DNA of 64,000 bases from assembly GCF_900541275.1 (NCBI RefSeq), contig NZ_UQJH01000003.1, positions 47,955-111,954 of the forward strand, written 5' to 3'. How positions within the stretch are numbered: position 1 is the stretch's first letter; each line of letters opens with the position of its first letter. The translations under genes were made by a program, and so were the position numbers. The notes below the pieces were generated by a model. That model was given only the letters and a program-made list of their open reading frames with translations, was not told where the DNA came from and did not search any database. Of the stretch, positions 3,446-58,398 are shown piece after piece. This DNA comes from an uncultured Porphyromonas sp. (GTDB taxonomy: Bacteria > Bacteroidota > Bacteroidia > Bacteroidales > Porphyromonadaceae).

Positions 3446-3505
3446 CTAATAGCGGTAATAGAGAAATCTATTACCGCTATTGGTCACGCTTATTACCGGT
3501 AATAG
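3446..3505. repeat. Phased palindrome array, variant A: three 16-bp units (CTAATAGCGGTAATAG / CTATTACCGCTATTGG / CTATTACCGGTAATAG) centred 22 bp apart
   Basis: Read directly from the sequence. Unit centres fall at 3453.5, 3475.5 and 3497.5. Confidence 0.8.
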
Positions 3506-3573: not shown

Positions 3574-3581
3574 TAGATTTG
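3574..3581 (+). promoter_or_regulatory. Candidate Bacteroidota -7 box (TAGATTTG) for ffh
   Basis: Matches TAnnTTTG and lies 66 bp upstream of the ffh ATG. Confidence 0.3.
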
Positions 3582-3646: not shown

Positions 3647-4999
3647 ATGTTTGAAAGTCTATCGGACCGACTTCTTGAGTCCTTTAAGAACCTTAAGGGA
3701 GAGGGATCCATCACCGAACTTAATGTCGCTGACACCGTCAAGGACATACGTAAGGCCTTGCTGGAGGCGGACGTCAATTACACCGTCGCCTCCGACTTTA
3801 CGAAGAGCGTCCTCGACAAGGCGGTGGGCGAAAAGGTGGTCTCCTCCATCAAGCCGGGACAGAAGCTGGTCCAGATCGTCCACGATGAGCTGACGCGCTG
3901 TATGGGCGGCACCGAGGTGGAGCTGAGGACCGACGCGGACCCCAATATCATCCTGATGTCGGGTCTGCAGGGCTCAGGTAAGACCACCTTTGCCGGCAAG
4001 CTCGCCAATATGCTGCACAAGAAGAAGGGGCTGAAGCCTCTCCTTGTCGCCGGGGATGTCTATCGACCGGCTGCCATCGAGCAGCTCAAGGTGATCGCTG
4101 CTCAGATCGGCATACCGGTCTACAGCGAGGAGGGCAATCAGGATCCGGTGGCGATCGCTGAGCGGGCGCTTGCCTTTGCGAAGATGAATGGTCGCGACAC
4201 GATCATCATCGATACCGCCGGGCGCCTCGCCGTGGATGACGTGCTGATGACCGAGATCGCCAATATCAAGACAGCGGTCAGACCGACACAGATCCTCTTC
4301 GTCGTCGACTCAATGACGGGACAGGATGCGGTGAATACGGCCAAGGAATTCAATGACCGGCTCGACTTCGACGGCGTAGTCCTGACGAAGCTGGATGGTG
4401 ATACCCGAGGCGGTGCTGCTCTCTCGATCCGGACTGTGGTCGACAAGCCTATCCTCTTCATCGGTACGGGAGAGAAGATGGAGGCAATCGACGTCTTTTA
4501 CCCCACCCGTATGGCGGACCGCATCCTCGGGATGGGCGATGTCGTCTCCCTCGTGGAGCGGATGGAGCAGCAGTACGATGAGAAGAAGGCTGCCCAGCTG
4601 GAGAGCAAGATCAGGAAGAATAAGTTTGACTTCGACGACTTCCTCGAGCAGATCCAGCAGATCAAGAAGATGGGCAACCTCAAGGATCTCTTAGCCATGA
4701 TCCCCGGTGTCGGCAGTGCGATCAAGGACTTAGACGTAGACGACAGCGCCTTCAGCGGCATCGAGGCTATTATCCGCTCGATGACGCCCGAGGAGCGCGC
4801 CAATCCTGACATCATCAACGCTGAGCGGCGGAAGCGTATCGCTGCAGGTAGCGGGAAGGACATACAGGAGGTGAATCGCCTGATCAAGCAATTTAACTCC
4901 GCCAAGAAGATGATGAAGAAGATGAGCAGCCTCGGTCTCAATGGCAAGGGCGCTCCCTCTATGGCTCAGATGCGACAGCAGATGAGAGGCGGCAGATGA
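3647..4999 (+). CDS. ffh: Signal recognition particle protein Ffh
   Basis: N-terminal MFESLSDRL...NVADTVKDIRKALLEADV, the GLQGSGKTT P-loop and a Met-rich C-terminal M domain. Confidence 0.95.
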   Translation: MFESLSDRLLESFKNLKGEGSITELNVADTVKDIRKALLEADVNYTVASDFTKSVLDKAVGEKVVSSIKPGQKLVQIVHDELTRCMGGTEVELRTDADPNIILMSGLQGSGKTTFAGKLANMLHKKKGLKPLLVAGDVYRPAAIEQLKVIAAQIGIPVYSEEGNQDPVAIAERALAFAKMNGRDTIIIDTAGRLAVDDVLMTEIANIKTAVRPTQILFVVDSMTGQDAVNTAKEFNDRLDFDGVVLTKLDGDTRGGAALSIRTVVDKPILFIGTGEKMEAIDVFYPTRMADRILGMGDVVSLVERMEQQYDEKKAAQLESKIRKNKFDFDDFLEQIQQIKKMGNLKDLLAMIPGVGSAIKDLDVDDSAFSGIEAIIRSMTPEERANPDIINAERRKRIAAGSGKDIQEVNRLIKQFNSAKKMMKKMSSLGLNGKGAPSMAQMRQQMRGGR

Positions 5000-14191: not shown

Positions 14192-14431
14192 ACCCTCACG
14201 TCACCGGATCAGGTGGACTAATAAAGACGCGCACACACCCTTTCGGCACCGCGACCATCCATAGTGAGAGACCAAACCGCCCCCGATGATCGCCATCACT
14301 CAGTGAGGGCACCAAAGCCTCCTAATAGGTCTACATATCCCACGAAACTCCTCCACTTTCGCACACCTCTTGAGAACCCAAGGAGCGTCCTCGCAATAGG
14401 CTGACAATCAGACTCAGGATATGTGGTACTT

Positions 14432-14491
14432 CTAATACCGATATTAGTGAACTCTAATACCGATATTAGAGGATTCTTTTACCGGTATTAG
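14432..14491. repeat. Phased palindrome array B: CTAATACCGATATTAG x2 + CTTTTACCGGTATTAG, centres 22 bp apart
   Basis: Read directly from the sequence. Unit centres fall at 14439.5, 14461.5 and 14483.5. Confidence 0.85.
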
Positions 14492-14565
14492 GCGTGCTTT
14501 TGTTTGGGAAGGTGGGGGAAAAAGTGGAACTTTGTATCTATCCTATATGACTATGACACCAAGTC

Positions 14566-32968: not shown

Positions 32969-32976
32969 CAAAGATA
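32969..32976 (-). promoter_or_regulatory. Candidate -7 box (TATCTTTG on minus strand) for queDE
   Basis: The reverse complement of CAAAGATA matches TAnnTTTG. It implies a ~190-nt leader if queD starts at 32768. Confidence 0.3.
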
Positions 32977-33148: not shown

Positions 33149-33230
33149 CTTTTACCGATATTAGAGACGACTAATATCGGTATTAGTATTTTCTTTTACC
33201 GGTATTAGTGATCTCTAATACCGATATTAG
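33149..33230. repeat. Phased palindrome array C: four units (CTTTTACCGATATTAG, CTAATATCGGTATTAG, CTTTTACCGGTATTAG, CTAATACCGATATTAG), centres exactly 22 bp apart
   Basis: Read directly from the sequence. Unit centres fall at 33156.5, 33178.5, 33200.5 and 33222.5. Confidence 0.85.
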
Positions 33231-33309: not shown

Positions 33310-33317
33310 TATATTTG
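33310..33317 (+). promoter_or_regulatory. Candidate -7 box (TATATTTG) for rubredoxin gene
   Basis: Matches TAnnTTTG and lies 55 bp upstream of the ATG at 33373. Confidence 0.35.
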
Positions 33318-39165: not shown

Positions 39166-39375
39166 TTACTTAAGGCGTACAGTGATCGGTGAGATCTCCT
39201 CAAAGGTGAGCTTATCCTCCCTCGCCAGCCAGCCGAGCGCAATGTGGACATCCCTCAGGGTGCCGATCTTCGTAGCACTCTTGATATCCTTATCGGTCAT
39301 CGCCTTCTTGCTCTTGCGGAGCACCTCCCACACGAGACCGGCATTGGTACCGATCAGCTCTGTCATTTCATCCAT
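39166..39375 (-). CDS. Small winged-helix DNA-binding protein (DUF2582-like)
   Basis: About 69 aa (MDEMTELIGTNAGLVWEVLRKSKKAMTDKDIKSATKIG...), typical of the Bacteroidota wHTH mini-protein family. Confidence 0.55.
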   Translation of the reverse strand: MDEMTELIGTNAGLVWEVLRKSKKAMTDKDIKSATKIGTLRDVHIALGWLAREDKLTFEEISPITVRLK

Positions 39376-39663
39376 AATTCGTCTGTTACACTTTAGTTAC
39401 TAAGTCATTATACATCTTTTGATGCGCTAAAGATACCACAATTTCCAGAGTATGCCACAAGCCACCCGCCCCCTCAAAGGGTGACGCATTGGGGCGTTAC
39501 AGCTAAGAAGCGGCTCCCCCTGCAAGGTGCGATCCCTCTGACCGGTTAGTCTCCTGATGCTCCTACATACCGAGGGGCGGAGCTTCAGAGGGATCATCGC
39601 TCCTTCGCCAGACATCGAGACACGAGGTGGCGAAGACCGCAGGAGACGCAATTTTGGTTTAGA

Positions 39664-39690
39664 GGAGACACGGGGAGACACGGAGAGACT
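39664..39690. repeat. Short tandem repeat GGAGACACG-GGGAGACACG-GAGAGAC inside ORF-free region
   Basis: Read directly from the sequence. Confidence 0.6.
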
Positions 39691-40039
39691 CTGTGAGACA
39701 ACCCCTCCCGGCTGGGGGGCTATATTTGCACCGCTGAAGCCTCTGGACAAGTGAGGTGATCGTCGCTCAGCCGAGGTGCTGGGGGCAGTCTCCGCTTCTC
39801 CTTCTACGTGCATTCTACGTCCTCTATAGGGTATTTCGCGCCGTAGGAAGGGGATCTTAGGAGCGCACTTTGATAGGGCTGATGGTGCTGACCGCAAAGG
39901 TCGATTCGTCTATGCACCCTCTCAATGAGCTGAATGGTTTTCTGTATCACTCAGTACCCCTCCCCCCTCCACTCCCCAATCAGTTCGCCGAAGGGGGGAC
40001 TAAAGCACCGGCAGTACTCTCATATGACGGGGATGGATC

Positions 40040-49759: not shown

Positions 49760-49837
49760 TGGTGGACCCTGTAGGATTCGAACCTACGACCCTCTGTTTG
49801 TAAGACAGACGCTCTAAACCAACTGAGCTAAGGATCC
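49760..49837 (-). tRNA. tRNA-Val (anticodon TAC), CCA encoded
   Basis: Reverse complement GGATCCTTAGCTCAGTTGGTTTAGAGCGTCTGTCTTACAAACAGAGGGTCGTAGGTTCGAATCCTACAGGGTCCACCA folds into a cloverleaf. The anticodon loop is CTTACAA. Confidence 0.9.
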
Positions 49838-49863: not shown

Positions 49864-49938
49864 TGGACCCTGTAGGATTCGAACCTACGACCCTCTGTTT
49901 GTAAGACAGACGCTCTAAACCAACTGAGCTAAGGATCC
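49864..49938 (-). tRNA. tRNA-Val (anticodon TAC), second identical copy without encoded CCA
   Basis: A 75-nt body identical to the first copy. The 3' end is followed by CTG rather than CCA. Confidence 0.9.
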
Positions 49939-58256: not shown

Positions 58257-58302
58257 GGAGGAGGGAGAGCCACCCAAGCGGGCTCTCCCTCCTCTCTTTT
58301 TA
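58257..58302 (+). terminator. Rho-independent terminator after ROK gene
   Basis: A GGAGGGAGAGCC ... GGCTCTCCCTCC stem followed by TCTCTTTTT. Confidence 0.7.
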
Positions 58303-58338: not shown

Positions 58339-58398
58339 CTAATACCGATATTAGTGACGACTAATACCGGTATTAGTGTTTTCTTTTATCGGTATTAG
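58339..58398. repeat. Phased palindrome array D: CTAATACCGATATTAG, CTAATACCGGTATTAG, CTTTTATCGGTATTAG; centres 22 bp apart
   Basis: Read directly from the sequence. Unit centres fall at 58346.5, 58368.5 and 58390.5. Confidence 0.85.

Follow-up and report, generated by a model that had tools for sequence, protein, structure and literature searches.

Repetitive extragenic palindromes (REPs) are defined as imperfect palindromes of 20–40 bp with a GTAG or CGTC tag at one end, occurring singly or in pairs with variable spacing (PMC3733652). Many REPs are transcribed hairpins linked to REP-associated tyrosine transposases (RAYTs) (PMC3733652). Within Porphyromonas, the BrickBuilt repeats of P. gingivalis are built from a 23-nt unit (AGAYCATARTATCCTCTCRTRTG) without spacers, are present in 19 copies, and show a variable, often high repeat number (PMC4596501). 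BrickBuilt also has leader and tail segments and terminal inverted repeats like those of ISPg elements, and an influence on neighboring transcription was reported (PMC4596501). Here we describe another family of intergenic repeats, found in a 64-kb stretch of DNA from an uncultured Porphyromonas sp. (contig NZ_UQJH01000003.1, positions 47,955–111,954; this whole stretch is called the window). The family consists of arrays, mostly of three or four units, in which a 16-bp palindrome recurs every 22 bp. On balance, we favor reading it as a dispersed intergenic repeat restricted to the P. bennonis clade, whose core would be a set of helically phased sites for a dimeric protein, with an architectural role as the preferred one.

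In the OR/OL operators of phage lambda and in Fis-site arrays, dimers on one DNA face bind cooperatively; these sets are single-locus or promoter-class-specific, and the protein is known. The Neisseria dRS3 element is a short repeat with inverted ends that occurs in high copy in lineage-restricted intergenic mosaics, where the units alternate with 50–150-bp variable segments and are integration targets for a phage. REPs and the bacterial interspersed mosaic elements (BIMEs) that contain them were proposed to bind architectural proteins or topoisomerases. Dispersed repeats in Bacteroidota were described mainly as MITEs (miniature inverted-repeat transposable elements).

The window contains 13 units of the form CTWWTA-NCGN-TAWWAG, grouped in four arrays (A–D):

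3446–3505, no strand assigned: array A, three units (3446, 3468, and 3490); ffh (3647–4999) follows after 141 bp.
14432–14491, no strand assigned: array B, three units, two copies of CTAATACCGATATTAG followed by CTTTTACCGGTATTAG.
33149–33230, no strand assigned: array C, four units with a 44-bp super-period; between a divergent PTPS (queD-like) gene and the rubredoxin gene.
58339–58398, no strand assigned: array D, three units; 138 bp downstream of a ROK-family gene and 187 bp upstream of an HU-CCDC81-domain gene.

Direct reading of these regions placed the arrays where the original prediction, made from the window's letters, had put them, and unit starts were 22 bp apart without exception. 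Tandem Repeats Finder independently gave a period of 22 for arrays B, C, and D and the 44-bp super-period in array C. A search with CTAATACCGRTATTAG at up to 3 mismatches gave 26 strand matches, equal to the 13 units, and none outside the four arrays. Dinucleotide-preserving shuffles (n = 100) gave a mean of 0.37 matches and a maximum of 3. The G+C content of the window is 52–62% in 2-kb windows, and the A+T content of the units is about 75%.

Array A (CTAATAGCGGTAATAG / CTATTACCGCTATTGG / TTATTACCGGTAATAG) belongs to a diverged dialect, in which the cores are GCGG/CCGC and the halves CTATTA/TAATAG; instead of being self-palindromes, its units 1 and 2 are near reverse complements of one another. 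Distances to the downstream start codons had been given as 75–190 bp and measured 141, 74, 142, and 187 bp for arrays A to D. Array B is separated by 328 bp from ftsH on its upstream side and by 74 bp from an S41 protease gene on its downstream side. The last unit of each array had been said to carry a TTTT half-site. This half-site is last only in arrays B and D, lies in units 1 and 3 of array C, and is absent from array A; in other loci it occupies either half of the unit at any array position. The single orientation claimed for all arrays has little meaning for near-palindromes and fails genome-wide.

Array and unit statistics were taken from 655 kb of fetched clade loci. The half-site reads CTWWTA followed by Y, on both sides of an invariant central CG, and consecutive units are separated by free 6-bp spacers. 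Among 341 units, C1, T2, C8, G9, A15, and G16 were invariant at 98.5–100%, and T5, A6, T11, and A12 were conserved at about 94–95%. Position 3 was A (90%) or T, mirrored by position 14, and position 4 was A (68%) or T (31%), mirrored by position 13. Position 7 was C (70%) or T (29%), and position 10 was G (69%) or A (29%). Spacers were variable, with a weak T-G...C-A preference at their edges. The strict phasing also extends across the clade loci, where 243 of 254 spacings were exactly 22 bp.

Array sizes were narrowly distributed: 2 units in 11 arrays (several cut by contig ends), 3 in 39, 4 in 48, 5 in 4, and 6 in 1. No genuine isolated consensus unit was present in the 655 kb; three apparent perfect singletons belonged to arrays in which N runs, or a single spacing of 21 bp, broke the series. 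That units always come as a set, and that set size varies so little, suggests a cooperative complex with a defined size. Each genome type had its own dialect. In Porphyromonas sp. HMSC065F10, one metagenome-assembled genome (MAG), and the window, CTAATA made up 65–83% of half-sites and CTTTTA 10–15%. In P. bennonis and two MAGs, CTAATA made up about 52% and CTATTA about 30%, with rarer CTAAAC and CTATAG. Nine of 99 arrays abutted contig ends or N runs (loci L019, L066, L016, L017, L036, L079, L088, and L093), which indicates that the repeat breaks short-read assemblies.

A degenerate two-unit pattern was scanned against 185,579 species-representative genomes and gave at least 93 stretches. Among the matches listed, 92 of 93 stretches lay in five species-level Porphyromonas genomes of the P. 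bennonis group: Porphyromonas bennonis DSM 23058, Porphyromonas sp. HMSC065F10, and three uncultured Porphyromonas MAGs. The remaining match (L084), from an unrelated Bacteroidetes MAG, was inside a called open reading frame (ORF) and looks like chance. The 93 loci held at least about 100 arrays among the matches listed, and the expectation of dozens of arrays genome-wide was therefore borne out and was even too low. The density was at least one array per 11–17 kb, with at least four on a 69-kb and at least four on a 46-kb scaffold of P. bennonis and four in the window. With an assumed genome size of about 2 Mb, this extrapolates to the order of 100–200 arrays per genome, i.e., probably more than 100. 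The same arrays were found in isolates and in independent metagenome assemblies. Around array A, HMSC065F10 was 96–99% identical to the window, which assigns the window to that species or to a very near one; metagenome contigs identical to the window came in part from human gut samples.

The rubredoxin locus shows how far the family reaches. An array was present upstream of rubredoxin in all ten relatives with an identical rubredoxin, which were fetched by protein identity. The gene on the other side of this array varied from genome to genome between PTPS and an S9 peptidase, and the DNA between array and rubredoxin promoter was not alignable between the two locus types. The rubredoxin −7 box and its surroundings were kept in all relatives, at 79, 109, or 220 bp from the array. 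As rubredoxin is too conserved for tracing deeper lineages, its homologs coming from unrelated taxa whose synteny differed, DNA polymerase III delta-prime homologs were used as the marker. Lineages down to about 75% delta-prime protein identity had a phased three-unit array upstream of rubredoxin (L129, 9602–9661), 136 bp (hand-measured) from the −7 box. Its units (CTAWTACCGCTAAAGR) are non-palindromic, and one is inverted; they resemble the array A dialect, and the half-site pair may exist here in an older form or in an alternative one. A lineage at 71% identity (L130) had no array at the rubredoxin locus, and outgroups at 46–50% identity, including P. levii, had none in 12–21 kb.

In kind, the family is nearest to REP/BIME and the Neisseria mosaic elements, and it would work most like tandem operator or Fis-site arrays, though it does not belong to any regulon-type system. 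As with REP/BIME elements, the units are high-copy extragenic palindromes that are clade-specific, cluster, form mosaics with other short motifs, and lie at operon boundaries, including convergent ones; the array density of one per 11–17 kb is comparable to that of BIMEs in E. coli. In contrast to REPs, the units are 16 bp long, start with CTAA, CTAT, or CTTT and end with TTAG, ATAG, or AAAG, with no GTAG or CGTC tag in 341 units. They are never single, keep the exact 22-bp period in sets of 3–4, and show no selection for pairing. No RAYT was seen among the 25 Pfam families listed for 91 array-facing genes. With dRS3 the family shares high-copy, lineage-restricted intergenic mosaics of repeat arrays, whereas its fixed 22-bp period is different. 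No phage link emerged, as the single match in a viral collection was host flank beside a tRNA gene. By analogy, the lambda OR/OL and upstream Fis-site sets also have 3–4 palindromic sites (about 15–17 bp) with short AT-rich spacers upstream of promoters; the present arrays would differ from them in their probably more than 100 chromosomal copies, shared flanks, lack of a gene theme, and occurrence between convergent genes as well. The invariant central CpG with two variable neighbors also recalls LacI-type operators, a tentative lead.

BrickBuilt is likewise an intergenic, multi-copy, tandem short-period repeat of the same genus, but its unit is unrelated to the palindromic 16 + 6 bp arrangement in 3–4 copies found here, and no inverted-repeat ends were found. 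Identity with BrickBuilt was ruled out, as the 23-nt consensus and period differ from the window units. An iteron origin or plasmid centromere, expected as direct repeats beside rep or par genes in one or a few copies on a replicon, was also rejected: units are palindromes, chromosomal copies probably number more than 100, the listed neighbors include no rep or par family, and a distant blastn search of array C against plasmids gave no match. In CRISPR arrays the repeats are at least some 23 bp long, the unique spacers are of comparable length, and cas genes are often present; units of 16 bp, spacers of 6 bp, and 3–4 copies exclude this class. Known structured RNAs were excluded by Rfam 15 at the gathering score, which gave only two tRNAs in the window and only three tRNAs in eight related loci. 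Unit substrings matched only 16S, barcode, and similar unrelated sequences in literature text, and the motif was not described in literature on RAYT/REPIN in Bacteroidetes or on P. bennonis repeats. Thus the claim that no described motif matches held for literature text, Rfam, plasmids, and phages. The family is set apart from BrickBuilt, canonical REPs, CRISPR, iteron origins, and Rfam families, and belongs to the bacterial interspersed extragenic repeats.

Position-specific constraint was measured in orthologous arrays, defined by both 150-bp flanks being alignable and by equal unit number (11 pairs). The 14 core positions of the units differed at 13/518 sites (2.5%), compared with 12/74 (16%) for the central N positions, 23/156 (15%) for the spacers, and 356/3240 (11%) for the flanks. 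The core–flank difference had p = 1e-11. Part of this set was ascertained via the motif; the subset fetched by protein identity gave core 3/252, N positions 4/36, spacers 9/78, and flanks 145/1493 (p = 2.5e-7). These p-values are optimistic, as the pairs lie partly on one tree, but the effect is large: contact positions diverge 4–8 times more slowly than spacers or flanks. Such conserved positions, with neutral spacers 6 bp away, argue for selective maintenance of the copies over mere tolerance. Conservation in relatives, suggested earlier as a check, was found both in the retention of arrays at orthologous sites and in the slower divergence of their core relative to spacers and flanks.

Pairing covariation was absent at positions 3/14 (p = 1.0) and 4/13 (p = 0.70). 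The two halves vary independently, which fits half-site recognition and not base pairing. Positions 7 and 10 were anti-correlated, and their complementarity was below expectation (137 observed, 193.5 expected). The core counts were CCGG 135, CCGA 98, TCGG 96, and TCGA 2, against about 29 TCGA expected (p = 4e-16). Genome-wide avoidance of TCGA or ATCGAT was rejected as the cause, with observed/expected (O/E) ratios of 0.90 and 0.82. The simplest reading is that a half-site would tolerate the weaker T, and that units with two weak halves would be selected against, i.e., a site-strength threshold. The TCGA deficit and the order of cores along arrays could also come from deamination of methylated CCGG that halts once the site is destroyed, or from a few master copies. 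As a separate observation on short words in the 655 kb of clade sequence, CTAG (O/E 0.16) and GGCC (O/E 0.39) were strongly under-represented, which may reflect restriction-modification pressure.

Many arrays share more than their units. A palindromic alpha box (CTGRnnnYCAG) occurs on one side only; 24 arrays bear it, and in 23 of them its offset from the array is exactly 20 nt. The window has one example:

14401–14411, no strand assigned: alpha box CTGACAATCAG, exactly 20 nt left of array B; part of the shared mosaic flank.

Further out on the alpha side, TTGYG lies about 36–42 nt from the array, and on the other side TCTGAGG abuts it. In a column profile of 17 loci from four species, the alpha region gave about 0.95 bit/column, the units 1.7–1.9, the spacers 0.5–1.0, and the 8-bp right end 0.95, against an outside background of 0.14–0.18 bit/column, so the borders of the element are sharp. 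The internal order is fixed: CTAtTACCGGTATTAG, CTAtTACCGGTAtTAG, TGTcgA, CTAATACCGactATAG, T..TCA, CTAATACCGgTATTAG. This shared conserved module indicates that one element, some 130 bp long, was ancestral to these copies, whose binding sites did not evolve independently. Together with the dialects, it indicates that the family spreads or is renewed by copying. Other arrays, including most of the HMSC type, showed different flanks by visual inspection, often G-rich (AWTTGCCCC...GAGGGG).

Arrays are stable within species; arrays B and D are identical or nearly so across several strains, and the sequence of array B is the same in three other strains. Array D has two alleles among strains, with flanks differing by 11%, units at 3/42 core positions, and spacers at 4/12. 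The ortholog of array A in HMSC065F10 (L023) has flanks that are 96–99% identical, identical spacers, and six differences in units 2–3; here the replacement of ACCGCT by AGCGGT has the look of an inversion or a template switch. Breaks in synteny fall at arrays (rubredoxin loci L094–L103; L078 compared with L091 and L008), and the sequences on either side of one HMSC065F10 array correspond to two separate array-bearing loci in P. bennonis. Nearly all orthologous comparisons had the array in both genomes. In the sole case of absence (L010 and L055), the DNA at the locus was so diverged that the borders were blurred. The orthologous comparisons yielded neither a clean empty site nor a target-site duplication, no inverted-repeat ends were found at the element borders, and inspection of the listed loci showed no direct repeats.

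The same genomes also contain multiple copies of a separate MITE of about 380–420 bp; its terminal inverted repeats are GGGGTGACGCATTTGAGC / GCTCAAATGCGTCACCCC, and its interior is GC-rich and highly self-complementary. Copies lie at L064 885–1262 and 1890–2300, and a degenerate copy at about 39468–39900 of the window probably makes ORF 39427–39897 spurious. Ten of its 37 inverted-repeat cores were within 60 bp of an array. This proximity is not clearly beyond coincidence, because neither element occurs outside intergenic DNA and the presence of arrays was the basis for choosing the loci.

The arrays are intergenic, and the few apparent overlaps with ORFs are at the ends of crudely called ORFs. 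They face 91 gene 5′ ends and 69 gene 3′ ends (p = 0.10). The 91 array-facing genes (5′ end) represent 125 Pfam families with at most two members each, and include ffh, RNase R, FeoB, tRNA synthetases, DnaN, sigma factors, and proteases. They show no common theme, in agreement with the earlier remark that the downstream genes lack a functional link. No transposase family was among the 25 Pfam families listed for these genes, which is a limited view. In intergenic regions of 150–1000 bp in the fetched loci, arrays were present in 8 of the 18 convergent regions and in 56 of the 121 that bear promoters (p = 1.0). One convergent pair, with Pfam support on both sides, encodes a thioredoxin-like protein and DprA (L033). 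Of 204 array sides, 89 had an outward-facing Bacteroidetes −7 box (TAnnTTTG, mostly TACCTTTG) no more than 400 bp away, where motif density predicts about 10%. The array-to-box distance had its mode at 50–100 bp and ranged from about 20 to more than 300 bp, with only about six at or below 36 bp. A location upstream of a promoter is thus common for arrays, overlap with one is rare, and arrays also occur away from promoters. The corresponding features of the window are as follows:

3574–3581, plus strand: Bacteroidetes-type −7 box of ffh (TAGATTTG), 68 bp past the end of array A; motif match, putative promoter.
14503–14506 and 14527–14534, directly after array B: putative −33 element TTTG and −7-like box GAACTTTG, from sequence reading.
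32969–32976, minus strand: −7 box TATCTTTG, oriented toward the divergent PTPS gene; 172 bp separate it from array C at the left edge; motif match only.
33310–33317, plus strand: −7 box of the rubredoxin promoter (TATATTTG), starting 79 bp past array C, whose end is 142 bp from the rubredoxin start codon.
58260–58301, plus strand: putative terminator-like hairpin (GGAGGGAGAGCC...GGCTCTCCCTCC plus T run) after the ROK gene, from sequence reading.

Arrays A, B, and C are therefore followed by a promoter box, and array D, which follows the terminator-like hairpin, lies between a putative terminator and the next promoter. This placement implies that most arrays are probably outside the downstream transcript.

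The favored reading builds on the anatomy, copy number, clade restriction, position-specific constraint, lack of pairing covariation, shared module, and lack of a functional theme given above. Each 16-bp unit would be the site of one DNA-binding protein with two-fold symmetry, a dimer. Within a unit, the CTAAT and ATTAG blocks, 11 bp apart, would be read in successive major grooves, and as the 22-bp period is about two helical turns, 3–4 dimers would lie along roughly one DNA face. The dimers may bind cooperatively as a single nucleoprotein complex over 60–82 bp, which would account for the lack of single units. The family would have spread by copying of a ~130-bp mosaic, consisting of alpha box, 20-nt linker, array, and short TCTGAGG end, and of other flank types as well. 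Copies would then be retained at orthologous intergenic positions by selection on the contact positions. The arrays would act as DNA and not as RNA, at operon boundaries, usually 50–250 bp upstream of a −7 box and also between convergent genes. The preferred role is nucleoid organization, insulation, or a generic promoter-upstream scaffold, by analogy with BIME/REP elements and Fis upstream sites. The lack of a gene theme, the convergent locations, and the high copy number argue for such an architectural or generic role over a regulon. Of the interpretations first offered for the arrays, phased sites for a two-fold symmetric protein and a dispersed repeat are retained, whereas a gene-specific operator or regulon and a partition or centromere-like site are not.

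An alternative explanation is a selfish or neutral non-autonomous element, MITE- or REP-like. Its units would be transposase or recombinase sites, homogenized by the enzyme or by recombination, with no host function. It accounts for the ~130-bp module at many unrelated loci with a fixed variant order (including the non-palindromic third unit CTAATACCGACTATAG) and a family-level spacer consensus, for a half-site dialect particular to each genome, for array-bearing segments swapped between close genomes, and for synteny breaks at arrays. Arrays in convergent regions without a gene theme, and the 9/99 arrays at contig ends or N runs, are also consistent with it. However, no terminal inverted repeats or target-site duplications are recognizable, the alpha box is one-sided, and the candidate empty site (L010 compared with L055) is without clean boundaries. 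In the limited view available, there is no transposase in the 25 listed families and no family with more than two of the 91 facing genes. Copy number is held tightly at 3–4, unlike that of minisatellite-bearing MITEs. Moreover, the arrays are stable at orthologous sites across species, and contacts diverge 4–8 times more slowly than spacers 6 bp away. Neutral decay would not give such slow divergence, and gene-conversion tracts longer than 16 bp would homogenize the spacers too. We therefore consider a purely selfish element unlikely, though it deserves real weight. Operator arrays of one transcription factor with the downstream genes as its regulon, which was the leading idea of the original prediction, are improbable. 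Palindromic sites with conserved contact positions and free spacers fit that idea, as do the outward −7 boxes on 89/204 array sides (within 400 bp, mostly 50–100 bp, against about 10% expected), the conserved array upstream of rubredoxin, and a weak 11-bp periodicity of the array-to-promoter distance. But the 91 facing genes fall into 125 Pfam families of at most two members each, there are probably more than 100 arrays per genome, and convergent regions are occupied as often as others. The distance to the rubredoxin promoter is 79, 109, 136, or 220 bp by lineage, the orientation of the alpha and beta flanks to the neighboring gene was mixed on inspection (no formal count), shared flanks point to copying and not to independent site evolution, and the periodicity is lost in a period scan.

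A role as nucleic-acid structure, either DNA cruciforms or hairpins, or RNA hairpins acting as terminators or mRNA stabilizers as proposed for REPs, has very little probability in our view. Single-strand folding was far better than in shuffles (DNA −17 kcal/mol, z = −5.4; RNA −28.9 kcal/mol, z = −6.6), units 1 and 2 of array A are reverse complements, and the order CCGA then TCGG is favored 27 to 8. But strong folding follows automatically from palindromes; there is no within-unit covariation, and complementarity at positions 7/10 is 137 against 193.5 expected. Mismatches between units in the inverted comparison were about equal to those in the direct comparison, so complementarity was no better than direct similarity. 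The central CG, at a loop-like position, is invariant and its neighbors are variable, most arrays are probably outside the downstream transcript, and no Rfam family matched. Chance, low complexity, or an assembly artefact can be dismissed: beyond the AT-richness of the units nothing speaks for it, the 26 strand matches stand against 0.37 expected, the phasing is kept across the clade, and the arrays recur in isolates and independent metagenome assemblies.

Several points weigh against the reading of phased, selected protein sites. Protein binding, the dimer state, cooperativity, and the role of the complex are all deduced from sequence. The conservation could stem from transposase or recombinase recognition, as for REPs by RAYTs, or from recurrent replacement. 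In L009 and L092, flanks are 95–96% identical, and yet past a shared first unit the units and spacers follow the dialect of their own genome. In L095 (2554–2927) and L100, flanks are 98% identical, and the 273-bp and 372-bp array-bearing segments between them are non-homologous, which looks like cassette-like replacement; array content can thus be exchanged wholesale between close genomes. The excess of CCGA before TCGG along arrays (27 against 8 in the reverse order) and the 11-bp periodicity of the array-to-−7-box distance (R = 0.31, n = 43), which is suggestive at the preset 11-bp period but not significant, as a fraction of 0.14 of jittered sets match it after a period scan, count on the same side. 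So do the crude gene calls of the fetched loci (longest ORFs) and the shared ancestry and motif-based ascertainment of part of the orthologous pairs.

Some neighboring features of the window and related loci were also recorded. A 69-aa winged-helix protein (39166–39375, minus strand), named earlier as a candidate regulator, has a genuine DUF2582 domain match and a counterpart at L129 3430–3642. It adjoins a tyrosine-phosphatase-family gene both in the window and in the deeper lineage L129, and no link to the arrays was seen. Two tandem tRNA genes at 49763–49837 and 49864–49938 (minus strand) are about 100 bp apart and have an equal Rfam score of 73.8 bits. In one strain (L115, 1673–3329), the HU-CCDC81 gene is followed by a 129-aa gene and then, immediately downstream as an insertion, by an AbiEi/AbiEii pair, an abortive-infection toxin-antitoxin system.

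To our knowledge, the nucleoid-associated and global DNA-binding proteins of Bacteroidota are poorly characterized, and the array-bearing organisms derive from human-associated samples. The clean anatomy of the arrays (22-bp period, 3–4 sites, invariant contacts, neutral spacers) should make the 80-bp array C suited as protein bait. A bolder form of the favored reading, which we hold only tentatively and consider rather doubtful, is an undescribed genome-wide DNA-organizing system, in which 3–4 dimers of one protein would bind cooperatively on more than 100 arrays at operon boundaries and the cassettes would have spread like a mobile element before being fixed under selection. If the family is selfish, it would represent a new type of prokaryotic repeat with its own mobilizing enzyme. 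If it is functional, it would be an example of a binding-site cassette that spreads like a mobile element, is then kept by selection, and marks operon boundaries. If the genome-wide system is real, it would be a Bacteroidota counterpart of the BIME/IHF/gyrase or Fis-type architecture, with sites far more regular than those of any known nucleoid-protein set.

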